DNA from: a virus
Taxonomy: Duplodnaviria > Heunggongvirae > Uroviricota > Caudoviricetes
DNA length: 64,000 bases
IMG/VR virus record: IMGVR_UViG_3300036770_002544
Span: 10,654 to 74,653 of that record
Strand: one strand, 5' to 3'
The notes beneath the pieces are model-generated. The model was not told the origin of the DNA. It did not search any database and saw only the letters and a program-made list of their open reading frames with translations. This document shows, piece by piece, positions 1,153 to 19,842 of this stretch (the first letter of the stretch is position 1; each line of letters opens with the position of its first letter). The position numbers and the translations under genes were made by a program.

Positions 1153-1961
1153 AGATACATGTTAAGAAATTAACAAAACAGAAAAGTTGTTCGCTGTAAA
1201 GAAAACACTCGTGCTAGTCCTGAAAATTTGCGGTAATGATTATAATCCGCGAGCATGGACCTGCTAATCATTGTTCTTTAAAAATTTCGGCTAAGATTTT
1301 TTCTTAGCATTGTTGAGCATACTGACTTTGCTTAACCTCTATCTCAGTATACATGAGAATAAGTTAAGTAAGGCTCGTGAGACCAACGCTAGAGGATGGG
1401 AAGATTGTTACCTACCCCAAAAGCGTCTAAACAATCTGTGGTTCAGTGTGTTCAACAATGTTAAGATGTTAAGATTTTAAGGGCAGTTTATTGTCCTGTA
1501 GCGTATGGTTCGCCCAGCGTTACGAAGAATAAGTCGAGTGATCGACCCAAAGGAGGTAAGCCTACGCAACTCCGCCAGCAATGGTTCGTGTAAACAAGCC
1601 TGCTCACTGCCGCGAGGCAGCGTTCACTGATAAGACCGGTGGATGTATATGTGAAGCAAGTGTAGTGGAAAGAATGTCTGCTCAAGCGCCAGCAATGGTA
1701 ACGCAAGTGGATAGAGAGAAACAGGTGGTGCTGTCCTCACTACAAAACCAACTTGTCAGCAAGTATGAGAAAGGGTAGTGTTATGATCCGAGGAGTCGCT
1801 CCCAAGGGTTGTAGTGCATTGTTAGTGGTTAGTGGGTATAGCAATATACACACCGGTCGCAAAACAACACTGAGTAGTCCGCGAGACAAAAGGTATTTGG
1901 TGAGTTGTATTGGGTAGAGCAAAACTTTATTCAGCAACTGAGTCAGCTCATCAAGGTAGGT

Positions 1962-2034
1962 TCAGTTATAGCACAATTGGTAGTGCATCTCCCTGTTAAG
2001 GAGACGGCTGAAGGTTCAACTCCTTCTAACGTTT
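1962..2034 (+). tRNA. tRNA-Asn(GTT)-like, weak acceptor stem (possible pseudo-tRNA)
   Basis: D-arm gcac/gtgc. Anticodon arm ctcc-CTGTTAA-ggag. T-arm gaagg-TTCAACT-ccttc. The acceptor halves do not pair well. Confidence 0.45.
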
Positions 2035-2453
2035 AAAAAGCAAAGACTGACTCGGTTATCAGTGAAAAGCATCTAATGCTTGACACGCAAGTGAATCAAG
2101 TCCATCGTAGCTCGCAAGGCGAAAGTGGTTTGTACTAGAAGTTTCGTAAGGTGTTAGCGCACTTGAATGGCTCGCAAGGTCAACGGAGAAGAAGGTACAG
2201 AGTAACTGGTAACGACAAGCCTACTGCCTGGCTTTAAAAACGGCGATGCTGACAACAGACAGTGATACCGCAAGGGTTGCTGTGGATGTCGAGAGAAGGT
2301 ATGCTCGCAAGGTGTACTATAATGCTCGAGGTGTTGTTGGCTTAAGGTGTAATCTCAACCTTAGGCACTATTATAAAACACATTACTAAGAGTCCAGGTT
2401 CAGAGCGTGGCATAGTGTGTTTCATAATAGTTATAAATAACTGTAACAAATTG

Positions 2454-2530
2454 ACGCGGTGTGTTAGAAGTGGTATCTGGCCAGGCTCATAACCTGGAGA
2501 TCGGAGGTTCGAATCCTTCCACCGCAACCA
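2454..2530 (+). tRNA. tRNA-Met/Ile2 (CAT)
   Basis: Anticodon arm ccagg-CTCATAA-cctgg. T-arm ggagg-TTCGAAT-ccttc. 3' end caccgca-a-CCA. Confidence 0.6.
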
Positions 2531-2577
2531 AATTCTGGCGTGTTGTATAAATACAACACTTGAAAAACAAATCGTGG

Positions 2578-2606
2578 TTGACACGAGAAGGTAAATAAAG
2601 TACAAT
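2578..2606 (+). promoter_or_regulatory. sigma70-type promoter (TTGACA-N17-TACAAT)
   Basis: ttgacacgagaaggtaaataaagtacaat. The roughly 185-nt unit it drives ends at the hairpin terminator at 2769-2797. Confidence 0.5.
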
Positions 2607-2768
2607 AGGACTTATGATGAAACACACAAAACATTCACAGTTGAACTCTACAATGTGCCAAGCGCAAGCCTGGTCACGTGGGTTTACGATTGTGAATAGT
2701 ATTCCCGGTAGTCAAGGGTCCGTTGGAGACAAAGTGTAACCTAAAAGTACACTAAGAATCTAAAAGGA

Positions 2769-2797
2769 CCCTGGAACTAAAAACTCCAGGGTTTTTC
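2769..2797 (+). terminator. rho-independent terminator
   Basis: ccctgga-actaaaaac-tccaggg followed by ttttt. Confidence 0.7.
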
Positions 2798-2983
2798 ATT
2801 TTAGTGCAAGGCAACGCGAGCCTGTATCACTTTAAACTACAAATGGGCGGCCTGTAGGATGAAGCACTTCTTGTAGTGTGAAAAATTACAGCGTATCGAA
2901 GCATTTTCAGGCCGCAAGGCAAGTGGGTTCATCCATGTAGAATGCTTCGATACACACATTGGAAACAGTGTGTTAAAAATTAT

Positions 2984-3058
2984 GGGCTGTAGGTGTTGTT
3001 GGGGGCACACGGGCTTTGCAAGCCTGGAGGAACGGTTCGATCCCGTTACGGTCCACCA
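2984..3058 (+). tRNA. tRNA-Ala(TGC)
   Basis: Acceptor gggctgt/acggtcc with G:U pairs. D-arm gtgt/acac. Anticodon loop TTTGCAA. T-arm aacgg-TTCGATC-ccgtt. CCA encoded. Confidence 0.7.
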
Positions 3059-3065
3059 TAATTGT

Positions 3066-3139
3066 ATCTCGCTGGTGTAATGGCAGCATAGCGGTCTCCA
3101 AAACCGTTGGTCGGGGTTCGAGTCCCTGGTGGGATGCCA
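3066..3139 (+). tRNA. tRNA-Trp(CCA)
   Basis: Acceptor atctcgc/gtgggat. Anticodon arm gcggt-CTCCAAA-accgt. T-arm cgggg-TTCGAGT-ccctg. Ends in gCCA. Confidence 0.65.
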
Positions 3140-3181
3140 AGTTTGGTTGTAGTCGCAGGTTCGAGTCCTGCCCGCTGGTCA
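3140..3181 (+). pseudogene. tRNA 3'-half fragment (T-arm plus acceptor remnant)
   Basis: gcagg-TTCGAGT-cctgc T-arm with no matching 5' half. It shares a cgctggt direct repeat with the preceding tRNA. Confidence 0.35.
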
Positions 3182-3193
3182 AGTTAAAAGCAG

Positions 3194-3216
3194 CCGCGGT
3201 AGTTTAGAGGTAAAAC
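3194..3216 (+). pseudogene. tRNA 5'-half fragment
   Basis: gccgcggtagtttagaggtaaaac resembles acceptor plus D-arm (compare the tRNA-Phe 5' end gccgcggtagctca). No downstream anticodon or T arms. Confidence 0.3.
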
Positions 3217-3233
3217 AACACCATTTTTATTGT

Positions 3234-3308
3234 AGGGGGTTCGCCAAGTGGTAAGGCATCTGATTTTGATTCAGACATCCGGTGGTTCGATCCCATCACC
3301 CTCTGCCA
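3234..3308 (+). tRNA. tRNA-Gln(TTG)
   Basis: Acceptor agggggt/accctct. D-arm gcc-aagtggtaa-ggc. Anticodon arm tctga-TTTTGAT-tcaga. T-arm ggtgg-TTCGATC-ccatc. gCCA. Confidence 0.7.
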
Positions 3309-3315
3309 AAAATTT

Positions 3316-3340
3316 AGCCGTGTAGCTCAGAGGAAGAGCA
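3316..3340 (+). pseudogene. tRNA 5'-half fragment immediately upstream of the HNH gene
   Basis: gccgtgtagctcagaggaagagca equals acceptor plus D-arm. No anticodon or T arms follow. Confidence 0.35.
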
Positions 3341-3381
3341 AATCGTATGCAGAGCATAAATACATGTAAGGAGTGCTCTGT

Positions 3382-3762
3382 ATGAAAGCAGTATGTAAAA
3401 CATGCAAAAATGAATTTGTAGTTGGAAGAAGTTCTACCGGAAAGTATTGTTCGTTAACTTGTTCAAAAGTAGGACAATCAAACGACCGTAGGCAAAACTT
3501 TTTAGAAGGTAAAATGACTAGCCGTGCACTCATGAAAGTTCATATGACTGACATACACGGCTGGAAATGTATGTGTTGTAATAATACTGAGTGGAACAGT
3601 AAGCCTATACCACTCGAATTAGATCATATCGACGGTAATGCAGGAGATAATAGGCCACAAAATTTAAGATTACTGTGTCCAAATTGTCATGCGCAAACGC
3701 CAACACATAAAGCAAAAAATAAAGGAAACGGAAGAGGTAGTCGAGGTCTTCCGTGGTATTAA
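3382..3762 (+). CDS. HNH homing endonuclease
   Basis: HNH motif ELDHIDGNAGDNRPQNLRLLCPNCHA plus N-terminal Cys pairs. SD taaggag 9 nt upstream of the ATG. Confidence 0.8.
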   Translation: MKAVCKTCKNEFVVGRSSTGKYCSLTCSKVGQSNDRRQNFLEGKMTSRALMKVHMTDIHGWKCMCCNNTEWNSKPIPLELDHIDGNAGDNRPQNLRLLCPNCHAQTPTHKAKNKGNGRGSRGLPWY

Positions 3763-3763
3763 C

Positions 3764-3828
3764 ACCAGGTTAGCTCAGTGGTAGAGCAGCGGCTTGATAA
3801 GCCGTTGGTCGCAAGTTCAAATCTTGCA
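3764..3828 (+). tRNA. tRNA-Ile(GAT)
   Basis: Perfect acceptor accaggt/acctggt. D-arm gctc-agtggtag-agc. Anticodon arm gcggc-TTGATAA-gccgt. T-arm gcaag-TTCAAAT-cttgc. aCCA. Confidence 0.8.
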
Positions 3829-3834
3829 CCTGGT

Positions 3835-3930
3835 ACCAAACAATCCACTGTAGGCTTGGACGCCCGGAATGCATGCGCCGAAGAGACGGTTCGATTCCGT
3901 CCTTGGATAAACCAGGTTCGATCCCTGGAC
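3835..3930 (+). tRNA. atypical roughly 95-nt tRNA-like RNA with two T-arm-like hairpins (class II tRNA, composite or pseudo-tRNA)
   Basis: Perfect 7-bp acceptor ccactgt...acagtgg. Two hairpins gacgg-TTCGATT-ccgtc and ccagg-TTCGATC-cctgg. No clean anticodon arm was found by eye. Confidence 0.35.
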
Positions 3931-3943
3931 AGTGGGCCTTTTT

Positions 3944-4014
3944 ATTCCGCAGAATCCGAGCTAGGTGCACGGACTTGACTGTTAATCAATGATTAGCTGG
4001 GTTCGAACCCCAGA
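3944..4014 (+). tRNA. tRNA-Asn(GTT)-like, degenerate acceptor and D arms
   Basis: Anticodon hairpin ttga-CTGTTAA-tcaa. T-arm ctggg-TTCGAAC-cccag. 3' end atgcgga-g-CCA. The 5' acceptor pairs only 5 of 7. Confidence 0.4.
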
Positions 4015-4018
4015 TGCG

Positions 4019-4094
4019 GAGCCAAACATGGGGGCAGCAGAGGGCTGCGGTGATCCCTTGCAAGGATCATGACTACAAGGGTTCGATACCCTGG
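4019..4094 (+). tRNA. tRNA-Ala(TGC)-like second copy, imperfect acceptor
   Basis: Anticodon arm gatcc-CTTGCAA-ggatc. T-arm aggg-TTCGATA-ccct. Ends ggcctcc-a-CCA. Confidence 0.45.
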
Positions 4095-4123
4095 GCCTCC
4101 ACCAAATAAGCAGATGACGTTTC

Positions 4124-4131
4124 TGCTCTTT
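4124..4131 (+). promoter_or_regulatory. TATAAATA box (T4-type late-promoter-like)
   Basis: tataaata lies 29 nt upstream of the 4160 ATG. A second copy sits at 2432-2439 upstream of a tRNA. Confidence 0.3.
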
Positions 4132-4159
4132 TGTATAAATAAAACAAAGGAGATCGAGC

Positions 4160-4546
4160 ATGAACGTTAATCAAAAGGGCAACATAGGCTTGCTAAAAGT
4201 CATAGGAGACTTGTATAATAAAGGCTACACAGTGTTTAAGCCTTTTGACGATTACAATCCAGTTGACTGTATTGCGATGAACGCAGAAGGCAAGACATTT
4301 AGATTACAGGTGAAGTATCGCAGTCCCGATCGAGATGACTCGTACGAGATTTCTGCTTCATCTATGGTAAATGGTAAGAGAGCACAAATTAACCGCGGAC
4401 TCATTGATTATTGGGCTGTATACCTGTCAGATTTAGACCAGGTAGTGTACATGCCGATAAGTATGATGGAAGGTAAAAAAGTTCACTACATTACCAGAAA
4501 ACAATTAGGTGAGATGGATGAGAGGTTGAAATCGGCACCCTGCTAA
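4160..4546 (+). CDS. hypothetical protein (possible small PD-(D/E)xK-like nuclease)
   Basis: RBS aaggagatcgagcATG. The 3' end overlaps the 5' half of tRNA-Ser by about 38 nt. Confidence 0.5.
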   Translation: MNVNQKGNIGLLKVIGDLYNKGYTVFKPFDDYNPVDCIAMNAEGKTFRLQVKYRSPDRDDSYEISASSMVNGKRAQINRGLIDYWAVYLSDLDQVVYMPISMMEGKKVHYITRKQLGEMDERLKSAPC

Positions 4547-4599
4547 GGTGTTTTCTTAGGAAACTAGGGACGTGGGTTCGAATCCCACTCTCACCACCA
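4508..4599 (+). tRNA. tRNA-Ser(GCT), class II
   Basis: Acceptor ggtgaga/tctcacc. Anticodon arm gcacc-CTGCTAA-ggtgt. Long variable arm. T-arm gtggg-TTCGAAT-cccac. aCCA. Confidence 0.8.
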
Positions 4600-4629
4600 A
4601 TTCGAAGTCTAGCAAACTTCAAAGTTTTC

Positions 4630-4703
4630 GCCCCTGTAGTTAAATGGTAGAACATCGGTTTTGTAATCCGAGGACGGGAGTTCGATTCTCTCTAGGGGCA
4701 CCA
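4630..4703 (+). tRNA. tRNA-Thr(TGT)
   Basis: Acceptor gcccctg/taggggc. D-arm gtt-aaatggtag-aac. Anticodon loop TTTGTAA. T-arm gggag-TTCGATT-ctctc. aCCA. Confidence 0.7.
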
Positions 4704-4710
4704 AATTTAT

Positions 4711-4786
4711 TCCTCAGTAGCTCAGTTGGTAGAGTAGCGGACTGTTAATCCGTTGGTCGCTGGATCGTGCCCAGCCTGGGGAGCCA
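4711..4786 (+). tRNA. tRNA-Asn(GTT)
   Basis: Acceptor tcctcag/ctgggga. D-arm tagctcagttggtagagta. Anticodon arm gcgga-CTGTTAA-tccgt. T-arm gctgg-ATCGTGC-ccagc. gCCA. Confidence 0.85.
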
Positions 4787-4794
4787 AACAAAAT

Positions 4795-4870
<76 letters not shown>

Positions 4871-4876
4871 GGATCA

Positions 4877-5909
4877 GATGTATACTCTAGACTTTTGCGA
4901 AGTTTATATCACTAATGTATGCAATTTAAATTGCACTCATTGTAATCGTTTTAATAATTTTGCTTTTGCAGGACACTCGCGGTGGGAAGATTACCAGCAC
5001 GATTACCAGCAATGGGCAAAAAAAGTAAATTTTAACAGTATCAGTATCCTTGGTGGAGAACCGTTATCCAACCCTGATTTTTTAAATTGGATGCATGGTA
5101 TTGCCACCGTGTGGAACAGTGCAGAAATATCTATTCTCACCAATGGGACACAGTTAGATAGATGGCCCAGTTTGTACAAAGAAATAAAAAAATACAACGG
5201 TCGTGTCACTGTTGTTATAAGCGAACATAGTCCGCAGCACTGGCTTGATGCCATTGGCAATGTAAAAAATTTTTTGCAAGGAACAATAGAAAATCAGGAA
5301 CATAAAACTTGGAAACAGTCTTATGATTCGATCAAAGATTCGTCATGGCCCGACTGCAATACCCCTGATGATTTTTATACCTTGCCTGAGCACATTCAAA
5401 CCGAATGTCAAACAGTGTTTAACATACACCCAACAAACAATGAATTTTCAGCCACCAGCGAGCGTGTTCATTTTTACAAAGACTCTAACAATGTAAAAAT
5501 TCTACTAGAGCCAAGTTGGATGTTTAAACCTAATGCATTGATATACCAAAGCACAAATCAAATTGATTTATACAACAGTGATCCAGAAAAAGCAATAAAA
5601 GCATGCACCATGAAAAAATGTCCGCAGTTCAGTCGCGGCAAACTTTACAAGTGCCCGCCGGTGACTGTGCTAGGTGATTTCATACAGCAATTCTCAATCA
5701 ATGTGTCTGACGCTGATAAGCAACTGATAGATGCGTATAAGCCTGCGTCACACTGTTGGCCTGATGATCAACTTAAGAAATTTTTAGATGATTTAACAGA
5801 TTTAAAAACAATCCCACAATGCAAGTTTTGTCCAGAAGAACTTCCATTTATTAAGTTTTCAGCTGGGACTAAAAAAATCAAACTGTTAAAAAAACAAAAC
5901 TTATCATAA
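4877..5909 (+). CDS. radical SAM protein with C-terminal Cys-rich (SPASM/twitch-like) region
   Basis: CNLNCTHC Cx3Cx2C at residues about 15-22. Extra Cys pairs near the C-terminus (CTMKKCPQF, CKFCPE). The table ORF 4767 start runs through tRNAs; the true start is taken as ATG 4877. Confidence 0.7.
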
Positions 5910-5913
5910 AAAA

Positions 5914-5989
<76 letters not shown>

Positions 5990-6038
5990 AACAAGCCTAC
6001 ACTCAATCCTGCCGCGATGACAGTCCCTGGGCTTTTAC

Positions 6039-6117
6039 ACCACTTTAGCTCAGTTGGACTTAGAGCACTGTGCTACGAACGCAGGGGTCGGGAGTTCGAA
6101 TCTCTCAGGTGGTACCA
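6039..6117 (+). tRNA. tRNA-Arg(ACG)
   Basis: Acceptor accactt/aggtggt. D-arm gctc/gagc. Anticodon arm ctgtg-CTACGAA-cgcag. T-arm gggag-TTCGAAT-ctctc. aCCA. Confidence 0.85.
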
Positions 6118-6242
6118 TTTTGTAATACTTGTGTTTGCCAAAAAGGTAAACCAAAGTATACATTTTTCGGGGCTCGGACGTTTTACAGCGATTCTTTTCT
6201 GCAGAACGTACAAAGATCCACAAGCAAGTAAAACAACAGCAA

Positions 6243-6271
6243 TTGACTCAAAATGACATCTGTTGTATAAT
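6243..6271 (+). promoter_or_regulatory. sigma70-type promoter (TTGACT-N17-TATAAT)
   Basis: ttgactcaaaatgacatctgttgtataat, upstream of the tRNA-Lys pair. Confidence 0.5.
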
Positions 6272-6379
6272 ACATTTTTAATTAGGAACATTGACATGAA
6301 ACGTTCAGCGAAACGATAGTGTCGTCTCAGTACCCTGTATGGTCTGGGATGGCACGTAAAAGACAATTTTTACATCCAT

Positions 6380-6454
6380 CCCTTTGAGATGTTAAGGCAG
6401 CATGCCGGACTCTTAATCCGTGACGTGTGGGTTCGACTCCCACCAGAGGGACCA
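6380..6454 (+). tRNA. tRNA-Lys(CTT)
   Basis: Acceptor ccctttg/cagaggg with G:U pairs. Anticodon loop CTCTTAA. T-arm gtggg-TTCGACT-cccac. aCCA. Confidence 0.7.
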
Positions 6455-6458
6455 TATA

Positions 6459-6535
6459 GGGTTGATAGTTTAATGGCTAAAACATCCGGCTTTTAACCGG
6501 TAAGAGTCAGGGTTCGAATCCCTGTCGACCCACCA
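6459..6535 (+). tRNA. tRNA-Lys(TTT)
   Basis: Acceptor gggttga/tcgaccc. Anticodon arm ccgg-CTTTTAA-ccgg. T-arm caggg-TTCGAAT-ccctg. aCCA. Confidence 0.85.
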
Positions 6536-6668
6536 TATAAAAACATTTTTGACGGGCATCATCGCCAACGCATAGTCGCGGTGCTCTGTTCGGTGACCCT
6601 GGCAGGTTGCGAAAATCTATTGTGCCAGCAATAAGAGAATTATTGAAAATGTTTCTATATGGTATTAT

Positions 6669-6743
6669 GGAGTCGTTAGTTTAGTGGTAAAACCGCGGGT
6701 TGTGATTCCGCTATCACGGGTTCGATTCCCGTACTTCTCCCCA
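6669..6743 (+). tRNA. tRNA-His(GTG) with G-1
   Basis: Anticodon arm gcggg-TTGTGAT-tccgc. D-arm gtt-tagtggtaa-aac. T-arm acggg-TTCGATT-cccgt. 3' end acttctc-c-CCA with an extra 5' G. Two internal acceptor mismatches. Confidence 0.65.
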
Positions 6744-6744
6744 A

Positions 6745-6819
6745 GGTGATATGACGTAGACGGATGCGTAGCGGTTTCATAAGCCGACGAGGTTGGGTCG
6801 GTACCAACTATCACCACCA
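6745..6819 (+). tRNA. tRNA-Met(CAT)-like with non-canonical T-loop
   Basis: Perfect acceptor ggtgata/tatcacc. Anticodon loop TTCATAA. T-arm gttgg-GTCGGTA-ccaac lacks TTC. aCCA. Confidence 0.55.
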
Positions 6820-6820
6820 C

Positions 6821-6895
6821 CGGTCCTTATTTCAATGGATAGAATGCCATGCTTCGAACTTGGCGATGTGGGTTCGATTCCTGCAGGACCGGCCA
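6821..6895 (+). tRNA. tRNA-Arg(TCG), anticodon assignment tentative
   Basis: Perfect acceptor cggtcct/aggaccg. Anticodon loop CTTCGAA. T-arm gtggg-TTCGATT-cctgc. gCCA. Confidence 0.55.
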
Positions 6896-6938
6896 AATGA
6901 TTTGTTAGTGCTGTATATGAACGAATAAATATTTTTTT

Positions 6939-7703
6939 ATGACTATTACTAAATTCACTACTGCACAACAACAGCTTTTGAAATTTGTATTAACGTGTGT
7001 CTCTTCTGTGCTGGGTATCTATGTATACCTAATACTAGGCGGCACCTTACTCAAGGCATTTCTGATATATCTATGTTTTGTATTAGTATCTAGAGTTGCA
7101 AACCTAGGTTATCATAGATGGCTGGCACACAACTTGTTAGAACCTGATTTGTTTGGTAGAATTTTTATACTATGGTGTATGGTAAGTTCGGCGTTAGTGA
7201 AGCCTTTGCCCTATGTCATAGGTCATAGACTGCATCACAAATATTCAGACACTGATAAAGATCCTCATCATCCCGGACTAGGGTTATGGGCTTGCTTGAT
7301 AGGAAACTTTAATGTCGTTGAAAACTTAACAATACCAGTAAAAGATTTGTATAGAAAAAAAGAAGTAATGTTTGTCAATAGATATTACTATCAATTATAT
7401 CTTGCAAACTTGCTATTGTTTTGGTTCATTGACAAAGATATAGTGCTACTAAGTTTCTCACTGTTAAACTTGCGTATGTGGGTCAACATAACTGTGTTCA
7501 ACTATCTTGCACACGGAGGTAAGCACGGAAAATCTCCTAAAAATTTGCCAGCCTGGACTAGTTACGTGTTAGGATATTCGGGAGAACAGTTACACAAAAA
7601 TCATCATGATGATCCTTCGTCTAGCGATTTTGGTAAATTGTCAAGATGGAATTTTGATATCATGTACAAAGTGTACAGCAAAATAGTCAAAGTTAAAAAT
7701 TAA
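6939..7703 (+). CDS. membrane fatty-acid (acyl-lipid) desaturase, delta-9-like
   Basis: Three His boxes HRWLAH, HRLHH, HKNHH. Multiple hydrophobic segments. Confidence 0.8.
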   Translation: MTITKFTTAQQQLLKFVLTCVSSVLGIYVYLILGGTLLKAFLIYLCFVLVSRVANLGYHRWLAHNLLEPDLFGRIFILWCMVSSALVKPLPYVIGHRLHHKYSDTDKDPHHPGLGLWACLIGNFNVVENLTIPVKDLYRKKEVMFVNRYYYQLYLANLLLFWFIDKDIVLLSFSLLNLRMWVNITVFNYLAHGGKHGKSPKNLPAWTSYVLGYSGEQLHKNHHDDPSSSDFGKLSRWNFDIMYKVYSKIVKVKN

Positions 7704-7752
7704 CACTCGGTGATTTCTGTACTACTATTAATCATAGTGTAGGTTATCATCT

Positions 7753-7781
7753 AGTTGACAACAAAACAATCTGCTGTTATA
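7753..7781 (+). promoter_or_regulatory. sigma70-type promoter (TTGACA-N17-TATACT) with palindrome over the -10
   Basis: ttgacaacaaaacaatctgctgttatact. gctgt-tatacta-cagc inverted repeat. Upstream of tRNA-Val. Confidence 0.5.
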
Positions 7782-7818
7782 CTACAGCATGTTCTTTAAA
7801 AATTAAGTTTGATAGTTT

Positions 7819-7903
7819 GCCCCTGTAGCTCAGTGGTAGAGCATCGCTTCGACAAAGCGAGGGTCGGTGGATCGTTCCCACCCAGTGGTACCAGTGTTAT
7901 TTA
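7819..7903 (+). tRNA. tRNA-Val(GAC)
   Basis: D-arm gctc-agtggtag-agc. Anticodon arm tcgct-TCGACAA-agcga. T-arm ggtgg-ATCGTTC-ccacc. cagtggt-a-CCA. Confidence 0.75.
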
Positions 7904-8088
7904 CACTGAGAATCTATCCAGGCCAGTGCCGACATCATGTTGGTAAAATAGCGCATGGTAAGTTTTTCATCGTAAATATCATTGACAAAGATGTAACAAG
8001 CGTCAGCAGTGTCGTTAACTGATAGGTGTATATGCATGTATCCGTTGGCAACTATGAAGTCTCGTGTTTGCATATTTTTATTTATTTT

Positions 8089-8162
8089 GCGGGATTGGCA
8101 TAAGGGTTGTGCAGTAGCCTTCCAAGCTACCCATAGCGGTTCGAGACCGCTATCCCGCTCCA
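8089..8162 (+). tRNA. tRNA-Gly(TCC)
   Basis: Perfect acceptor gcgggat/atcccgc. Anticodon arm gtagc-CTTCCAA-gctac. T-arm agcgg-TTCGAGA-ccgct. tCCA. Confidence 0.8.
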
Positions 8163-8169
8163 CAATTTA

Positions 8170-8244
8170 GGGTGATTAGCTCAGCGGTAGAGTCGCTGCC
8201 TTACACGCAGTTTGTCGGGAGTTCGATCCTCTCATCACCCACCA
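8170..8244 (+). tRNA. tRNA-Val(TAC)
   Basis: Acceptor gggtgat/atcaccc. D-arm gctc-agcggtag-agt. Anticodon arm gctgc-CTTACAC-gcagt. T-arm cggga-GTTCGAT-cctct. aCCA. Confidence 0.85.
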
Positions 8245-8252
8245 ACTTATTT

Positions 8253-8330
8253 CCGAGTGTAGCGCAGTCTGGTTAGCGCATCTGCTTTGGGAGCAGAGGG
8301 TCGTAGGTTCGAATCCTACTACTCGGACCA
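8253..8330 (+). tRNA. tRNA-Pro(TGG)
   Basis: Acceptor ccgagtg/tactcgg. D-arm gcgc-agtctggtta-gcgc. Anticodon arm tctgc-TTTGGGA-gcaga. T-arm gtagg-TTCGAAT-cctac. aCCA. Confidence 0.85.
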
Positions 8331-8337
8331 ATTCAAT

Positions 8338-8415
8338 GTACAGGTGGCAGAGTGGCCCAATGCAAGGGATTGCAAATCCCTAAAGCCGTCGGTTCAAATC
8401 CGACCCTGTACTCCA
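8338..8415 (+). tRNA. tRNA-Cys(GCA)
   Basis: Acceptor gtacagg/cctgtac. Anticodon arm aggga-TTGCAAA-tccct. T-arm gtcgg-TTCAAAT-ccgac. tCCA. Confidence 0.8.
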
Positions 8416-8420
8416 TCTAA

Positions 8421-8510
8421 GGAAGCGTGGTCGAGTGGTCTATGGCTCCGGTCTTGAAAACCGGCGATTACGAAAGTGGTCCGTGAGTTCGAATCTCACC
8501 GCTTCCACCA
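8421..8510 (+). tRNA. tRNA-Ser(TGA), class II
   Basis: Acceptor ggaagcg/cgcttcc. Anticodon arm ccggt-CTTGAAA-accgg. Long variable arm. T-arm gtgag-TTCGAAT-ctcac. aCCA. Confidence 0.85.
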
Positions 8511-8515
8511 TATAT

Positions 8516-8591
8516 GCCGCGGTAGCTCATCAGGTAGAGCAGCAGACTGAAAATCTGTGTGTGGCTGGTTCGAGTCCAGCTCGTGGCACCA
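8516..8591 (+). tRNA. tRNA-Phe(GAA)
   Basis: Acceptor gccgcgg/tcgtggc. D-arm tagctcatcaggtagagca. Anticodon arm gcaga-CTGAAAA-tctgt. T-arm ctggt-TCGAGTC-cagc. aCCA. Confidence 0.85.
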
Positions 8592-8592
8592 A

Positions 8593-9234
8593 TCAATGTC
8601 TATTAGGATCTCGAGTTTTTTCAAACTCTGGCACATGTTCGTTGCAACCAGGAAACCATGCTGGGGCAGGTGGAAGATCACACACTTCTCTAGTGAGATC
8701 TATCAACAAAATGAGACGCCGCTCTGAAGTGTTGTTCCAAACACTATGCAACTTTTGATTGTTGAAAGAAAAGACATCATCCCATAGTACAATTTCGTTT
8801 TCAACTTCGAAACCAATGTCGCCATCAGGAACGTACAAAGGAATATGGATGCGAATGCTTTTGGCATCTCTGTTTTCTATGCCAGTGTGTCTGTAAATAA
8901 TAGAGTTGGGTTCTACAATACTGTAACCAGCTAGGTGGCAGTGTTGTCCAAAAGCTTCAACTAATGAAAATGCAGTGGGATACCGAAGTCTATTGGATTC
9001 TGCAAGAACTCCTGATATATGTTTGATGCCTGATATTTTCCAGGCATTTTCTTTATCGTACAAGGTAGAATTTTGTCCAGTAGGATTTTGACGGTAAGGC
9101 ACGCTAGTAAATTTTTCTCCCGACTGGAAGTCTGGGTGCGCTTTGACAAAGTCTGCAAGTAAAGCAGGTTGTAACGCTCTAAACAATGCAGCAAATTTAA
9201 CTTCGTCGCCGCGATAGATATTTTTAAGTTCCAT
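8593..9234 (-). CDS. aspartyl/asparaginyl beta-hydroxylase-family (AspH-like, 2OG-Fe oxygenase cupin) protein
   Basis: Motif HTGIENRDAKSIRIHIPL matches the AspH H-x-G...N...R-x-H-x-PL signature. Paralog of 10868-11545. Confidence 0.6.
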   Translation of the reverse strand: MELKNIYRGDEVKFAALFRALQPALLADFVKAHPDFQSGEKFTSVPYRQNPTGQNSTLYDKENAWKISGIKHISGVLAESNRLRYPTAFSLVEAFGQHCHLAGYSIVEPNSIIYRHTGIENRDAKSIRIHIPLYVPDGDIGFEVENEIVLWDDVFSFNNQKLHSVWNNTSERRLILLIDLTREVCDLPPAPAWFPGCNEHVPEFEKTRDPNRH

Positions 9235-9291
9235 AGATACTTTCTTTAAAAATATTTATTGATCGTTATGGTACATTTATAATTTAACATT

Positions 9292-9366
9292 GTCCCTGTA
9301 GTTCAATGGATAGAACCGGTTCCTCCTAAGAACAAAATATCAGTTCGATTCTGGTCAGGGATACCA
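9292..9366 (+). tRNA. tRNA-Arg(CCT)
   Basis: Acceptor gtccctg/cagggat. D-arm gttcaatggatagaac. Anticodon loop CTCCTAA. T-arm atcag-TTCGATT-ctggt. aCCA. Confidence 0.75.
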
Positions 9367-9371
9367 AGCAT

Positions 9372-9448
9372 GCCCTGGTGGTGGAATTGGCAGACACACT
9401 GCGTTGAGGTCGCAGGTTCTACGGGTTCGAGTCCCGTCTAGGGTACCA
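9372..9448 (+). tRNA. tRNA with anticodon GAG (Leu-decoding) but short variable loop
   Basis: Acceptor gccctgg/ctagggt. Anticodon arm ctgcg-TTGAGGT-cgcag. T-arm acggg-TTCGAGT-cccgt. aCCA. At 77 nt it lacks the class II long arm expected of bacterial tRNA-Leu. Confidence 0.65.
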
Positions 9449-9802
9449 AGTTTTGTAGTAACCAGAGTCCTGTGTAAAAGGTGTTGCGGACGTCATGCGC
9501 TCTTTTTATCGCATGGGTCAATAAAGATCGAAGCGCAAACTAATAAGGTTGTGTCCTTGCCTACTACAGATTAGTTTTGCAAACAATAAAAACGTGTAGG
9601 GGTAATACCCCTTGAAGCTCTGTGCAGAGATGCACATCTTCTATGGATCAGTTGGTGGGATGAGAGGTCCTTCCCTGTTGCCGGTGTCAAGAGTTATCCA
9701 TTGTGGGAGCCGGAGTGCCAACCCAGGTCGATAGTTTACAGCCACACGCCCTAGCGAAACCGGATTGTTTGCAATTTTTTATTGTTGTTGAGAAGAAAAG
9801 AA

Positions 9803-10018
9803 ATGTATAAAATAGCAGAAAAAGAATTTGCCAATCTGGAGTTGGCAATGGCACATGCCAGGCAGTTAAATGAGTTTGTAACTATTGCTGGACCCGACTT
9901 TGAAGTTTGTGGCCGCTTTGGGGTAGATAGCGTTGAACGCGGGCTGTGCCCTGATGGTATTGCATACGATTGGAACAAGGCCAGTCGTACAGGTCGCGTA
10001 CAACGCGAACGAGTCTAA
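9803..10018 (+). CDS. hypothetical small protein
   Basis: ORF following a roughly 330-nt structured noncoding stretch. Weak RBS. Confidence 0.3.
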   Translation: MYKIAEKEFANLELAMAHARQLNEFVTIAGPDFEVCGRFGVDSVERGLCPDGIAYDWNKASRTGRVQRERV

Positions 10019-10108
10019 CGGAGGGTTAACTGGGCTGGGCCCAGCACTGTCTCGAAAACAGATGGACTGTGAAAACGGTTGGAGTTCGATTCTGCCATCC
10101 CTCTTCCA
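10019..10108 (+). tRNA. tRNA-like element (Ser CGA-type loop) with non-canonical T-arm
   Basis: Acceptor ggagggt/tccctct-t-CCA. Hairpin ctgt-CTCGAAA-acag. D region ctggg-ctgggc-cccag. The T-arm does not fold canonically. Confidence 0.3.
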
Positions 10109-10113
10109 ATTTT

Positions 10114-10184
10114 TGGCTCACTCTAGCTGATCTTGCGGGGTCCAAACTCTCAAGTCTCGGGTGCGATTCCTGAAGGGCCAGCCA
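10114..10184 (+). tRNA. tRNA-like element (acceptor plus T-arm only clearly foldable)
   Basis: Acceptor tggctca/agggcca-g-CCA. T-arm tcggg-TGCGATT-cctga. No clear anticodon arm. Confidence 0.3.
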
Positions 10185-10241
10185 TATACCGGTTTACACA
10201 AAACCGTAATATCAAGTATAATATATACTTGTGCAACCAAT

Positions 10242-10318
10242 GCCCCTGTGATGGAATTGGTATACGTGTCGGATTCAAAATCCGAATTTTGCGGGTTCGA
10301 GTCCCGCTGGGGGCACCA
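10242..10318 (+). tRNA. tRNA with anticodon CAA (Leu-decoding), short variable loop
   Basis: Acceptor gcccctg/tgggggc with G:U pairs. Anticodon arm tcgga-TTCAAAA-tccga. T-arm gcggg-TTCGAGT-cccgc. aCCA. Confidence 0.6.
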
Positions 10319-10333
10319 TTTTATAGAAAGACC

Positions 10334-10807
10334 ATGATGAAGAAAATCGATCTAGAACAAGTACGCCAGTTTATTGAAGCACAAACACCAGAAACAAAAA
10401 TCTATCTGGGTTGTGACTCCGAACGTCTGCGTGTCGACGGCCGTTGGTATGCCGATTATATTCTAGCGATTGTTGTTCACATCAATGGCAACAACGGTTG
10501 TAAGATTTTCGGCGAAGTACATCGTGAACCGGTGTGGGATGCCAAGCCAGGCAAGCCAAGTATGCGTCTTATGACCGAAGTGTACAAAGTCAGCGAACTG
10601 TATCTCAAGTTAGCAGAAGTGTTAGAAGGTCGACAAGTCGAAGTTCACTTGGACATCAACCCCGACGAACACTATGGATCAAGCTGTGTTATTAGCCAAG
10701 CTGTGGGCTACATCAAAGGCACTTGCAACGTGGTTCCGTTCGTCAAGCCACATGCGTTTGCTGCTAGTTATGCTGCTGACCGATTCAAGGGTTTGAGAGC
10801 AGCCTAA
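10334..10807 (+). CDS. hypothetical protein
   Basis: ATG immediately after the tRNA. The table ORF 10133 start runs through the tRNA, so the internal Met start MMKKIDLEQ is taken. Followed by a strong terminator. Confidence 0.5.
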   Translation: MMKKIDLEQVRQFIEAQTPETKIYLGCDSERLRVDGRWYADYILAIVVHINGNNGCKIFGEVHREPVWDAKPGKPSMRLMTEVYKVSELYLKLAEVLEGRQVEVHLDINPDEHYGSSCVISQAVGYIKGTCNVVPFVKPHAFAASYAADRFKGLRAA

Positions 10808-10867: not shown

Positions 10868-11545
10868 TTATTGCTGACAACTATGTAACATCTTGGGCAG
10901 TTGTCCTCGTACAAAATCTGGTACATGTTGATACCGAGTTACATCAGTTTTTATTCCCGGTTCAAGCCCCAGCACATCACGATGAAGGTCTAGCAAGTAG
11001 ACCAATCTGCGATGATCAGTATAATTGTATGCACTGTGTATGAACTGATTGTCAAACGCAAACAAATCTGACCAATCAATCTCTACGCCTTCAACTTCAA
11101 AGAAAATATCGCCAGGTGGCACTATCAACGGTATGTGTATTCTCACATACAGTCCATCTCTGTTTTCTACGCCGGTATGTCGTGAAATCACTGCATTATG
11201 CTCTAAGATACTGTAGGTGCTAACTGGGCAGGCATCGCCATATTTTTCAGTTAGTGCAACTGCTGTGGGGAAACGTTCTCGAATATCGTTGTGTTTGGTC
11301 TTGTCTATGACCAAATTGTGTCGAGGATTGGTATATTTTAATGGATCAACTTTCCAAGCATCGGGCCTGCTTTTGTAAGGATCGGTACTGAATATTGGGT
11401 TTTGATATGGGACACCTTTGGCAAAGTCGCCTTGAACAAAGTCAGTGTGGTAGGCCAAAAACTCTTCTAGTAGTTTAGGTGCTAGGGCTAGTAACTCGTC
11501 GGCTATTGGGATTTCTTCTCGGAGCCATATAGATTTTCTTGTCAT
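10868..11545 (-). CDS. aspartyl/asparaginyl beta-hydroxylase-family protein (paralog)
   Basis: HTGVENRDGLYVRIHIPL motif. Roughly 45 percent identical by eye to the 8593-9234 product. Confidence 0.6.
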   Translation of the reverse strand: MTRKSIWLREEIPIADELLALAPKLLEEFLAYHTDFVQGDFAKGVPYQNPIFSTDPYKSRPDAWKVDPLKYTNPRHNLVIDKTKHNDIRERFPTAVALTEKYGDACPVSTYSILEHNAVISRHTGVENRDGLYVRIHIPLIVPPGDIFFEVEGVEIDWSDLFAFDNQFIHSAYNYTDHRRLVYLLDLHRDVLGLEPGIKTDVTRYQHVPDFVRGQLPKMLHSCQQ

Positions 11546-12165: not shown

Positions 12166-12985
12166 CGTCGACCTAACAGATTTAAAAACAAGAGGTTTTG
12201 CGGTTGTAAAGAATTTTCTAACCGACTTGGAAATTAAACCACAATTACAAAATTACGAGATTCAAAAAAACAATCAATCGTCCCAAATCAAAATAAAAAA
12301 TTACTCTGTGATCAAAGCAAGCACTGAGCATAATTTAACTGACAAAATTAAACGTTTACTTGACAAAGTTGCTCAACAAACAGACATATCTATAAATCTT
12401 GTGGGACCAACAGGTGTGTATTTTGACACACAACTAGTAAATACTGGATGGCATCAAGACCATTTATCTTATTATACTTGGCAAACAGGCTACCATCAGA
12501 TAAACTTTTGGATACCTTTGATCAAGCCGTGCCCAACCATGTCAGGGCTTTGCGTGGTTCCAATGGATACGTTAAAAACACACATAGGCGATTTGTTCGA
12601 ACAACACATATTGGATCAAGGTGCAAAGAGATTTATACCAACAGACAACCGTACTCATGTGATTGACGACGACTCCGGACATGAGTTTGAGTTACCAGTT
12701 AATCTCAATGATATTGCAGTGGCTCCAGAACTGCAAGCAGGTGATTTGCTGATAGTCAGAGGAGATGTAATACATACTACCCAGGATTCTGACACCAATC
12801 GTGTTGCCCTTGCAATAAGAGCAGTAGACGGAAACAAGGCAGTTGATCGAACAAAGTTTCAACAGCAGTGCAACATGAAAAAAATGTTGCTCGACGCTGA
12901 TTCGGGCACTAAAAAAATTAACAATTACTTTGCTGCTGGACACAATCAGTTTGTCATACACGACCTTTATAGAGGACGTATTTGA
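12158..12985 (+). CDS. phytanoyl-CoA dioxygenase (PhyH)-family 2OG-Fe(II) oxygenase
   Basis: GWHQDHLSY motif, and a distal His in GDVIHTTQDS. Confidence 0.65.
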   Translation: MIDVDLTDLKTRGFAVVKNFLTDLEIKPQLQNYEIQKNNQSSQIKIKNYSVIKASTEHNLTDKIKRLLDKVAQQTDISINLVGPTGVYFDTQLVNTGWHQDHLSYYTWQTGYHQINFWIPLIKPCPTMSGLCVVPMDTLKTHIGDLFEQHILDQGAKRFIPTDNRTHVIDDDSGHEFELPVNLNDIAVAPELQAGDLLIVRGDVIHTTQDSDTNRVALAIRAVDGNKAVDRTKFQQQCNMKKMLLDADSGTKKINNYFAAGHNQFVIHDLYRGRI

Positions 12986-17793: not shown

Positions 17794-18138
17794 ATGCGTC
17801 TCGAAAAAAGTGTTGCTGTTGCAGTTGAATTTGCTGAAAAAGTTGCTCTGGCTCGAGTGCGATTTAAAAATGCAAAACTTTCCCAAATGGATATGGATTG
17901 GTACGAATCAAAATGGAAAACATTTTCAAATTCTGCCGAAGTAGATCACATGCTCAACACGTTAACTGATGCTTTATCGTTGTATTGGGACGTTGATCAG
18001 GAACTAAAATTAGACCCTACAAATTTAAAATTATTTTTAAACAGGGCAGAAATGACCAGACAAATTAGCAAAATTAGGCACAAGTTATTTTTGTTAGCAT
18101 CTGATGCTAACACAAACAAAGCATCAGATGGCATATGA
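17794..18138 (+). CDS. hypothetical protein
   Basis: ORF. Confidence 0.4.
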   Translation: MRLEKSVAVAVEFAEKVALARVRFKNAKLSQMDMDWYESKWKTFSNSAEVDHMLNTLTDALSLYWDVDQELKLDPTNLKLFLNRAEMTRQISKIRHKLFLLASDANTNKASDGI

Positions 18139-19693
18139 TTGTATTATTTTTACAGATGTAACTTACACAAATCTGGTGTATAAGCCAATGGGTGCTTATA
18201 AGTTAGCAAATCATCTGAGATCCAGTGGGTACAGTTGTTTAGTAGTTGATCATTTTCATACTTTTACTCAGCAGCAAATTTTAGATATTATTGCTGCGTC
18301 AGTAGGACCAGAAACTAAATTTGTTGGGTTTAGTATTGCTTTCTTCAATAGTGTAGAAGGTACTAATCCAATGGATCCGATATCTGATAATACCTATAAA
18401 CCGTTAGAATATAATCAATCGTTTTGTCCGCAAGGACAGGCATTTGAAATTGCATTGGTCTCTGCCATTCACGATATCAACAGCCATTGCAAAATAGTAT
18501 TAGGTGGTGCGGCCAGGATCAGCAATCAGATTAAAAATCCCAGGGTAGATTACGTGATTTCGGGATTCGCCGAAGTTGCTATATTAGATTTAGTGCATTC
18601 TTTGGAGCTTGGTCAGGTTCCGGGTACAGCAGTAAAAAATATATGGGGAACGCACATCATAGATGGTGGATCAGCTGAGTCATTTGACTATCAGCACAGC
18701 GAGATGGTATGGCAACCCGAAGATGTGGCTGGTATAAAAGTTTTACAACTCGATGTATCTCGTGGCTGCAAATTTAACTGTACTTTTTGCGACTGGAGCA
18801 TGCGTGGTACCAAGAATAACAAATGGACACGCGAAATAGACGTTCTTGCTTCAGAACTTCAGCGCAATTATGATCAGTATGGCATATATCGATACTTTGT
18901 ACATGACCATACTTTTAACGAAAGTGACTACAAACTCAATGTAGTCAAACAAGCAGTCAAACAATTAACATTTCAGCCCATCATCTGGTGTCACGTCAGA
19001 CCAGATTTACTAGTTAAATACCCCAACCGTACTGATACCATGTACGAAGTTGGTGTCAGGAGCATGATGATGGGTATCGAGACCCTGGACCCAGATGTGG
19101 CCAAAACTGTAGGCAAAGGTCTTGCACCAGAAAAAATCATTGCTGAATTAAAAAATATTCAACAACGCTACGGCAACGAGTTGTTGACCCATGGTAATTT
19201 TGTCATTGGCTTACCAGGCGAATCTATTGACAGTGTTCTTGCTACCGCTGCACGATTAGAAAACGGAGATATTTCGTTGCACCATTGGAGCTACAATGCA
19301 TTGATGATCAGCACAGATCATAACAATTGGTGGGGGTCTACATACGAACAAGATCCGGCCAGATACGGCTACACAGAAAACAAAAACACAATCACGACAG
19401 GATTTAATATTGATTATAGAAAAAATTCACTGATGAACTGGCGCAATGATCATATGACCTTTGAACAAGCTATGCATCTGAACAAAAAGTTATACGACTC
19501 GGCAGCCGATAACCCAGCCTATCTGGTAGACAGCATGGTCAGTTGGGCATTGATGGGTTTCACTGACCTAGACTTTAAAGGCATACAGAAGTTGCGTCCC
19601 CGGGATATTGATTGGTTTTCAGTGTCCAAGCAACGATTGCACTATCTATACGATTACAAGAAAAATATAATTAAACATGTGCACGGTAAATAA
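18128..19693 (+). CDS. radical SAM protein with N-terminal B12-binding-like domain (class B-like)
   Basis: CKFNCTFC Cx3Cx2C at about residue 210. The N-terminal region is Rossmann-like. Confidence 0.65.
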   Translation: MAYDCIIFTDVTYTNLVYKPMGAYKLANHLRSSGYSCLVVDHFHTFTQQQILDIIAASVGPETKFVGFSIAFFNSVEGTNPMDPISDNTYKPLEYNQSFCPQGQAFEIALVSAIHDINSHCKIVLGGAARISNQIKNPRVDYVISGFAEVAILDLVHSLELGQVPGTAVKNIWGTHIIDGGSAESFDYQHSEMVWQPEDVAGIKVLQLDVSRGCKFNCTFCDWSMRGTKNNKWTREIDVLASELQRNYDQYGIYRYFVHDHTFNESDYKLNVVKQAVKQLTFQPIIWCHVRPDLLVKYPNRTDTMYEVGVRSMMMGIETLDPDVAKTVGKGLAPEKIIAELKNIQQRYGNELLTHGNFVIGLPGESIDSVLATAARLENGDISLHHWSYNALMISTDHNNWWGSTYEQDPARYGYTENKNTITTGFNIDYRKNSLMNWRNDHMTFEQAMHLNKKLYDSAADNPAYLVDSMVSWALMGFTDLDFKGIQKLRPRDIDWFSVSKQRLHYLYDYKKNIIKHVHGK

Positions 19694-19740: not shown

Positions 19741-19769
19741 TTGACATGTAGATGTCTTTACTGTAGAAT
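19741..19769 (+). promoter_or_regulatory. sigma70-type promoter (TTGACA-N17-TAGAAT) with palindrome
   Basis: ttgacatgtagatgtctttactgtagaat. ctgtag-aatatac-tacag inverted repeat over the -10. Confidence 0.5.
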
Positions 19770-19842
19770 ATACTACAGAACGCCTGCCGTATGCAGAGTT
19801 CTTCTGCAAGCTAATACAACCATAATATTTTTAGGAATTAAC

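Follow-up and report, generated by a model that had tools for sequence, protein, structure and literature searches.

A putative SCD1/DesC-type acyl desaturase encoded within the tRNA array of a Caudoviricetes genome fragment

The desaturase gene and its predicted product

The stretch of DNA analysed in the present study comprises 64,000 nucleotides of the IMG/VR virus record IMGVR_UViG_3300036770_002544 (Caudoviricetes; positions 10,654 to 74,653 of that record) and is referred to as the window. It contains a gene predicted to encode a membrane-bound acyl desaturase, which is located within an array of tRNA genes. The coding sequence is the sole open reading frame (ORF) at its position, starts with ATG and encodes a protein of 254 amino acids (aa). 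The gene, its direct neighbours and the relevant features of its product are listed below; the transmembrane (TM) helices were taken from an AlphaFold2 (AF2) model.

6821-6895, plus strand: tRNA-Arg(tcg), upstream neighbour, ending 43 nt before the desaturase ATG (ARAGORN, Rfam)
6939-7703, plus strand: desaturase coding sequence, stop codon included
6960-7127, plus strand: TM hairpin 1, helices 8-32 and 37-63 with the turn G34-G35-T36, ending in His box 1 (DSSP on the AF2 model)
7113-7130, plus strand: His box 1, H59-R-W-L-A-H64 (HX4H), residues 59-64
7224-7238, plus strand: His box 2, H96-R-L-H99-H100 (HX2HH), residues 96-100
7386-7511, plus strand: TM hairpin 2, helices 150-164 and 166-191 with the turn D165-K166-D167, ending in N188/H192 (AF2 model)
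7500-7514, plus strand: N188-Y-L-A-H192, Asn and ninth His of an SCD1-type di-metal site
7593-7607, plus strand: His box 3, H219-K-N-H222-H223 (HX2HH), residues 219-223
7819-7893, plus strand: tRNA-Val(gac), downstream neighbour (ARAGORN, Rfam)

Database searches with the window desaturase yielded 137 matching proteins at E<=1e-3 with a top match of 1e-157. In a large protein collection 55 clusters of 214-260 aa (mostly ~230-254 aa) form a tight family with the window desaturase, sharing 42-91% identity with it. The members of this family are of metagenomic or viral origin throughout, and several of them were named stearoyl-CoA (delta-9) desaturase by the Joint Genome Institute (JGI). An exact copy of the window desaturase was detected only on one 1.4-kb Logan contig, and the search of the window for a second desaturase gene was negative.

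According to the alignment of the window desaturase with its 55 relatives (A1, 56 sequences) the eight His residues of the three boxes (H59, H64, H96, H99, H100, H219, H222 and H223) are invariant in all 56 members, as is His box 2. The same applies to N188, Y189 and H192, to the residues G215 and E216 preceding His box 3, and to D104, D108, P109 and H110 of a conserved D104...D108-P109-H110 motif which comes after His box 2. When cellular delta-9 desaturases are added to the alignment, H192 is still invariant and N188 is conserved in at least 90% of the sequences.

The motifs of the A1 profile pair residue for residue with the SCD1 motifs HRLWSH, HRAHH...DPH, NSAAH and HNYHH; in the SCD1 structures these motifs supply the di-metal centre with its nine His ligands and with the Asn that binds through a water molecule. 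The Asn and the ninth His of SCD1 are N265 and H269 of the NxxxH motif ending TM4. In the window desaturase itself His box 1 pairs with HRLWSH, His box 2 aligns with SCD1 HRAHHKFSETHADPH, N188-Y-L-A-H192 pairs with NSAAH and His box 3 with GEGFHNYHH. The delta-9-type "first desaturases" are characterised by the spacing HX4H / HX2HH / HX2HH, other subfamilies by HX3H / HX2-3HH / (H/Q)X2HH; the box spacing of the window desaturase (HRWLAH, HRLHH, HKNHH) fits the former.

A phmmer search of the window desaturase against the PDB retrieved only mouse and human SCD1 with E-values of 8.5e-7 (4ymk) and 3.2e-6, and the A1 profile detected SCD1 at 3.4e-13 and no other entry. The AF2 model built on A1 reached a mean predicted local distance difference test score (pLDDT) of 95.2 and a predicted template-modelling score (pTM) of 0.91. 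At E<=1e-3 a Foldseek search of the PDB returned only the SCD1 entries 6wf2, 4ymk and 4zyo (query-normalised TM-score, TMq, 0.72-0.74; probability 1.00), the next matches having E-values above 1.

In line with the model, the Kyte-Doolittle hydropathy of hairpin 1 peaks at 2.1-2.3 (residues 22-47) and that of hairpin 2 is moderate (1.0-1.8); G35 in the turn of hairpin 1 is invariant in the family. His boxes 2 and 3 are borne by cytosolic helices of the model. Since each hairpin returns to its starting side, all metal ligands and both termini are positioned at one membrane face, which by homology with SCD1 we infer to be the cytoplasmic one. On the basis of its sequence and modelled fold the window desaturase is therefore assigned to the SCD1/Ole1/DesC-type ("delta-9-type") membrane di-iron desaturases. 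The original prediction of a delta-9-type desaturase with three His boxes at 6939-7703 agrees with these results: the ORF and all boxes were located, the best matches are indeed desaturases (SCD1 in the PDB and the JGI "stearoyl-CoA desaturase (delta-9)" proteins), and the two modelled hairpins come back to a common membrane face, with all His clusters on one side.

A gene in such surroundings might also represent a decaying or non-catalytic passenger (moron) which was picked up in a plastic tRNA region. Mobile endonuclease genes (HNH, PD-(D/E)XK) abound in the vicinity, the gene has no Shine-Dalgarno motif, and its product is shorter than the cellular homologues and does not reach the Pfam cut-off. 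However, a Shine-Dalgarno motif is likewise missing from most genes of the window, the ORF is intact and full-length against its 55 relatives (98% coverage), the ten metal-site residues are invariant across 42-91% identity and the fold prediction is very confident. Furthermore, the comparison with a 77%-identical relative gave a non-synonymous divergence (dN) of 0.17, which is well under the saturated synonymous divergence (dS). A dead passenger gene appears highly improbable since the ligands are invariant. The match level and the ligand conservation are, as judged from the sequences, far above chance, and we conclude that the window desaturase is presumably a functional gene from a branch of the SCD1/DesC class that is long-standing and essentially viral.

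The gene product is probably an active, O2-dependent di-iron acyl desaturase of the SCD1/Ole1/DesC class, minimised in size and employed by the phage as an auxiliary metabolic gene. Two TM hairpins would anchor it in the cytoplasmic membrane of the host, and H59, H64, H96, H99, H100, H192, H219, H222 and H223 together with a water molecule held by N188 would bind two irons at the cytoplasmic face. The reaction would be driven by O2 and two electrons from a carrier of the host or from one encoded elsewhere by the phage. Two hydrogens would be taken from a saturated acyl chain so that a cis double bond, most likely at C9, is formed, and both the unsaturation and the fluidity of the membrane of the infected cell would rise without new fatty-acid synthesis. 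In this scheme we infer the activity, the C9 position, the substrate class, the electron donor, the host, the co-transcription and the benefit to the phage; the choice between acyl-lipid and acyl-CoA as well as the delta-9 regiochemistry cannot be read from the sequence.

Several observations weigh against this interpretation. The window desaturase shares 21-30% identity with any characterised desaturase. Its Pfam match to PF00487 (FA_desaturase; E 6.4e-6, profile positions 5-225 of 253) scores 26.5 bits and falls just short of the gathering cut-off of 29.7; within the family 39 of the 56 members match PF00487 at E<=0.01, the top value being 2e-12. The NCBIfam model NF049918 (DesA-family) is matched with 33 bits and its cut-off of 400 is not reached.

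The segment beside the Asn ligand reads I-T-V-F-N-Y in the window desaturase and T-W-L-V-N-S in the cellular enzymes. The Trp is not conserved in the viral family, where the corresponding column contains T (33 sequences), A (10), S (6) and N (4). In SCD1 this Trp presumably lines the substrate tunnel, and its replacement implies that the regiochemistry or the chain-length preference may differ. The Trp is part of a conserved motif, yet it is no formally defining feature of the subfamily.

With regard to the electron supply, a search for ferredoxin, flavodoxin, rubredoxin and cytochrome b5 motifs in all ORFs of the 64-kb window gave two implausible matches only, and no cytochrome b5 fusion was found in the relatives with ~70 extra N-terminal residues. 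A fused b5 domain was likewise not detected in the 254-aa window desaturase. These b5 and ferredoxin negatives do not discriminate between acyl-lipid and acyl-CoA carriers.

The sole pointer to a host is a gene predicted to encode a Bug/TctC solute-binding protein of the tripartite tricarboxylate transporters (19741-20808, plus strand; Pfam E 5e-38). All named cellular relatives of this protein belong to the Burkholderiales (33-38% identity), its 62-100% identical copies are metagenomic only, and no relatives were detected in the scan of genome contigs. The protein may point toward Burkholderiales, but only weakly, because the Bug/TctC family is greatly expanded there.

Viral relatives and possible substrate specificity

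The identity of the window desaturase to the aligned cellular delta-9 desaturases amounts to 22-27%, and compared with them ~20-40 C-terminal residues as well as a part of the loop after His box 2 are missing. The top match among 185,579 bacterial and archaeal species genomes (one per species) was 32% identical. In IMG/VR 509 viral contigs carry a gene for a related protein, which in six cases is at least 46% identical. The median length of the ORFs around the viral matches is 235-250 aa; around the cellular matches most ORFs reach >=270 aa, the start codons being crudely assigned. In a neighbour-joining tree (without support values) the window desaturase was placed in a clade of 22 leaves, none of which is cellular, and the 30 sequences closest to it all have a viral or metagenomic source.

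When 1.84 billion cluster representatives, a library which gives no origin for its matches, were searched exhaustively with a profile, 5,327 sequences were retrieved at E<=1e-3; of these 1,426 remained at E<=1e-10, and at E<=1e-30 there were 30. Lengths of 240-270 aa prevail among the 150 best matches. A sharp "cliff" between the family and the cellular desaturases, as suggested by the word-indexed search, was rejected as partly an artefact of sensitivity, as short relatives form a continuum in the exhaustive search.

On some related phage contigs two to four desaturase paralogues were detected within ~10 kb, in or beside tRNA arrays. Contig L014 carries four desaturase-like matches (1489-1968, 2773-3453, 5091-5414 and 10001-10708) and L021 carries three (2162-2887, 7805-8467 and 9601-10269), while L005 has a further desaturase-like match at 60-335.

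Two genes of the Asp/Asn-beta-hydroxylase family are encoded downstream of the desaturase gene:

8593-9234, minus strand: Asp/Asn-beta-hydroxylase-family (PF05118) gene in the tRNA array, 890 bp downstream of the desaturase gene
10868-11545, minus strand: paralogue of the former, 41% identical

These genes bear on a second explanation, according to which the SCD1 fold and the di-iron chemistry were kept and the specificity was changed, be it towards another position, chain length or carrier, or towards a hydroxylase. The carriers to be considered are acyl-CoA, lipid A, the acyl chains of ornithine lipids or other aminolipids, and a lipid made by the phage. Such an enzyme might act together with LpxO/OlsC-like PF05118 oxygenases as a lipid-remodelling set. 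A changed specificity would agree with the long divergence of the clade from the cellular enzymes (<=32% identity), with its shortening to ~250 aa and with the altered motif beside the Asn ligand. The occurrence of two to four desaturase paralogues in some relatives suggests sub-functionalisation. In contrast, the box spacing and the ninth His/Asn are exactly as in the delta-9-type enzymes.

The only NCBIfam matches of both PF05118 genes are OlsC and LpxO. These matches are weak, and with scores of 20-33 bits against cut-offs of 450-500 they indicate membership in the superfamily only. A PF05118 gene was found within 3 kb (<=3 kb) of the desaturase gene in 36 of 80 IMG/VR loci, but in none of 80 cellular loci, and the pairs occur in both gene orders, at times overlapping. 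The desaturase gene and a PF05118 gene also adjoin in the Pelagibacter phage Mosig. However, many of the 36 loci represent one phage lineage (partners 55-64% identical), and such genes are in any case frequent in these phages. In the window the hydroxylase genes are located on the opposite strand with seven tRNA genes between them and the desaturase gene, and their products had no BLASTP match (1e-3) to the Mosig-type partner. The window hydroxylases were therefore rejected as orthologues of this partner. The observations on PF05118 genes beside desaturase genes relate to the IMG/VR loci L023-L087 and to L169 (3312-4588).

Taking both sides into account, a changed specificity appears rather unlikely. 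A more far-reaching version, which we regard as unlikely, would view the viral SCD1-fold clade not as a copy of the delta-9 desaturase of the host but as a lipid oxidase evolved in phages with a regiochemistry or substrate of its own, e.g. the acyl chains of lipid A or aminolipids. If this were true, such a phage lipid oxidase might remodel the host envelope together with hydroxylases of the LpxO/OlsC family, with possible consequences for receptor display, superinfection or the timing of lysis.

The tRNA array and the surroundings of the desaturase gene

The desaturase of the SCD1/Ole1/DesC class is encoded between tRNA-Arg(tcg) and tRNA-Val(gac), on the same strand as both, which confirms its proposed position between tRNA genes. 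The array and its further features are as follows:

2455-10318, all plus strand: tRNA array of 26 tRNA genes (ARAGORN; flanking tRNAs of the desaturase gene confirmed by Rfam)
3373-3762: HNH endonuclease gene in the array
4160-4546: PD-(D/E)XK nuclease gene in the array
~4875-5909, plus strand: radical-SAM gene in the array (mechanical ORF 4767-5909)
7755-7789, plus strand: sigma-70-type promoter-like site, near-consensus TTGACA-17-TATACT, TG-extended (pattern scan)

The pattern scan called no promoter in the spacer of 43 nt between tRNA-Arg(tcg) and the desaturase ATG, and the promoter-like sites upstream of the gene were found at 6243-6271 and 6291-6320. Neither the desaturase gene nor most other genes of the window are preceded by a Shine-Dalgarno motif. 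Since the gene is co-oriented with the tRNA genes and no promoter was called in the spacer, joint transcription with the preceding tRNA-Lys/Lys/His/Arg block is probable. It is plausible that the desaturase mRNA is part of this common transcript and is freed by tRNA processing. The promoter-like site at 7755-7789 lies between the stop codon of the desaturase gene and tRNA-Val; its -10 region is located inside a 6-bp hairpin which is followed by a T-rich tail. This site likely marks the 3' boundary of the desaturase transcript and/or a restart for the next tRNA block. Near-consensus TTGACA/TATAAT promoters are present in the array, and the promoter-like regions in the array could not be aligned with each other.

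This arrangement raises the question whether the placement is functional, i.e. whether the desaturase is tied to the tRNA transcription unit in order to control its timing or dosage, for instance via the release of its mRNA by tRNA processing. The common orientation with 26 tRNA genes, the short distance of 43 nt to the upstream tRNA gene and the spacer without a detected promoter speak for this possibility, as does the recurrence of the array position in relatives at 77%, 53%, 36% and 33% identity. The desaturase gene is located inside a same-strand array of 29 tRNA genes in the 77%-identical relatives (L005-L007) and inside a same-strand array of 40 tRNA genes in the 53%-identical relatives (L001-L003). 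In L014 (36%) and L021 (33%) it is also found among tRNA genes; these are, however, encoded on the opposite strand. Furthermore, no tRNA gene is within reach of the desaturase gene in L008 (61%), L009 (51%), L004 and L010-L013 (46-48%), the array slot varies between the relatives, and a repeat or cassette boundary beside the gene is absent. A functional coupling of the desaturase to the tRNA genes is thus considered unlikely.

The comparison of the slots illustrates this variation. In the window the order is Arg(tcg) / desaturase / Val(gac), in L005 it is Phe / desaturase / 201-aa ORF / Arg(tcg) / HNH / Thr / Asn, and in L001 it is Arg(tcg) / HNH / Thr / 139-aa ORF / Asn / desaturase / Arg(tct). 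The tRNA backbone is partly common to the three arrays, but the slot of the desaturase gene differs. L001 and L005 share no conserved protein partner beside the desaturase, the only gene common to both being a 186-aa HNH gene (L001 4497-5057; L005 11518-12078). The HNH proteins are 85% identical whereas the desaturases of both arrays are only about half identical, and the same HNH gene also adjoins a 91%-identical relative of the window desaturase (contig of P0001). Judging from its distribution the HNH gene looks like a mobile (homing) element that circulates among the arrays. Flanking repeats or cassette ends were not found around the window desaturase, every repeat family being derived from tRNA genes.

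These comparisons support the view of the tRNA array as a zone in which genes accrete and are shuffled, and not as a site of fixed functional coupling. The position of the desaturase gene would then result from the role of the array as such a zone in this phage lineage. The earlier description of the locus as a hyperplastic insertion region is thus supported through the comparison with relatives, not by the placement alone.

A GOLLD RNA (1897-2361, plus strand) was detected directly 5' of the first tRNA gene of the array. It matches RF02032 in full length (model positions 1-416) with 213 bits (gathering cut-off 150) and an E-value of 1.4e-59, and contains a tRNA-like element at 1965-2030 (RF00005, 57 bits). 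No GOLLD RNA was found in the examined portions of L001, L004, L005, L009, L014 and L021. The co-occurrence of GOLLD RNA with tRNA genes and phages has been reported earlier, e.g. in PMC6582537 and PMC12286853.

A further tRNA-like match (6745-6816, plus strand; RF00005, 39 bits), which is not an ARAGORN call, lies between tRNA-His and tRNA-Arg(tcg). The stretches ~3941-4024 and 10036-10114 contain repeats resembling T-arms and anticodon arms that are common with real tRNAs (families D3, D8, D9 and D16), and may represent degenerate or unusual tRNAs. The GTG start (4767) of the radical-SAM ORF overlaps tRNA-Asn and tRNA-Gly; a likelier start is the ATG at ~4875 (MYTLDF...) directly after tRNA-Gly. 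The array of L005 additionally contains a gene for a 124-aa RF-1-domain protein (release-factor or peptidyl-tRNA-hydrolase-like) and a gene of the AdoMet-decarboxylase family (9153-9527 and 12322-12678).

With respect to the origin of the window, the tRNA region and flanking sequence of 24 kb were compared with 50,697 phage records by megablast, which yielded nothing beyond tRNA-sized matches. Neither this comparison nor the tblastn search with the desaturase gave any indication of a cyanophage. One relative of the desaturase is encoded on a 200,938-bp contig with 40 tRNA genes in 16.5 kb, which is consistent with a large or jumbo phage as the source.

The window furthermore encodes a MoxR-type AAA ATPase (26990-28075, plus strand), which shares 51% identity with its counterparts in PA5oct-like jumbo Pseudomonas phages, and ~2.3 kb downstream of it a DUF2201 metallopeptidase/VWA protein (30350-31621, plus strand). 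A tail-fibre-like protein, a Nol-type carbamoyltransferase and an SPFH protein are encoded as well. The window is rich in radical-SAM and 2-oxoglutarate (2OG)/Fe oxygenase genes, and sugar-modifying enzymes are present, too; TauD, PhyH and sugar aminotransferase/epimerase genes were identified. The density of radical-SAM genes is unusual; the six that were detected are located at 9-1112, 4875-5909, 18104-19693, 47182-48474, 51946-53313 and 54396-55787. One of them has a sub-threshold match to the SPASM domain, and three belong to a series of ORFs in one orientation at 46-59 kb.

Comparison with known desaturases

Phage desaturases are already accepted as auxiliary metabolic genes, and the window gene mainly adds a well-documented example. 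It is a new, divergent member of this known kind and belongs to an essentially viral-only branch that is naturally minimised at ~250 aa with every metal ligand kept. Such a natural "minimal SCD" could lend itself to structural and mechanistic studies of these membrane enzymes, which are difficult to express. The shifting slot of the desaturase gene beside a near-identical HNH gene documents that tRNA arrays of related large phages gather accessory genes. Should the host prove not to be a cyanobacterium, the manipulation of lipid fluidity by phages would extend beyond the photosynthetic hosts for which it was first described.

Mammalian SCD1 (4YMK, 6WF2, 4ZYO) resembles the window desaturase in its His boxes, in the Asn...His motif ending TM4, in the DPH motif and in the four TM helices forming two hairpins. 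However, both proteins share only 21-23% identity, and with 254 aa versus ~355 aa the window desaturase has shorter termini and shorter cytosolic loops. SCD1 acts on acyl-CoA with cytochrome b5 in the endoplasmic reticulum, and its Trp beside the Asn ligand is absent from the window desaturase.

The nearest cellular sequences are bacterial and cyanobacterial delta-9 desaturases (DesC, "sn-1 stearoyl-lipid 9-desaturase" and bacterial acyl-CoA desaturases), which have the same boxes and the same topology; they were named "acyl-lipid desaturase delta 9" or "stearoyl-CoA desaturase" by their sources. In contrast to the window desaturase these enzymes comprise ~270-300 aa, both the C-terminus and the loop after His box 2 being longer, and the identity is 22-32%.

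Among viral proteins a short relative is A0A6J5LCH2 of an uncultured Caudovirales phage (233 aa), the best match among the predicted viral structures of BFVD. It is 24% identical with a TMq of 0.61, and its name "OLE1 fatty-acid desaturase" is an automatic annotation.

The sole tblastn match (E<=1e-3) in 50,697 GenBank phage records was Mosig_00080 of the Pelagibacter phage Mosig (Kyanoviridae) with 23% identity over 68% of the query; cyanophage matches were not obtained in this search. Similar to the window desaturase, Mosig_00080 is a short (216 aa) FA_desaturase-domain protein; the accessory region which encodes it also contains genes of the Asp/Asn-hydroxylase, TauD and aminotransferase families, all of which are represented in the window as well. 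In contrast, it is located outside any tRNA array and directly adjoins its hydroxylase partner. A desaturase gene has also been reported on a pelagiphage scaffold (PMC11480375), and desaturase genes were described in viruses of Nitrospirota from Lake Baikal (PMC7678222).

The best-described viral desaturases are vFAD-I and vFAD-II of cyanomyophages (Roitman et al. 2017), which branch beside the picocyanobacterial DesC enzymes delta-9-3 and delta-9-4 and were shown to produce delta-9 C16:1 in yeast (PMC5776448). The precedent invoked by the original prediction, phage lipid desaturases as known auxiliary genes of cyanophages, is therefore real (PMC5776448). As in the cyanomyophages, the desaturase gene of the window is phage-borne and DesC-like and can be viewed as an auxiliary metabolic gene. 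Its product is 28-31% identical to DesC of Synechococcus/Cyanobium (L143, L151 and L168). By sequence it is placed outside the described vFAD families, a separation drawn via the picocyanobacterial DesC proteins and the published description of the vFADs. The window desaturase is thus assigned to a different and more divergent branch than the published desaturases of cyanophages.

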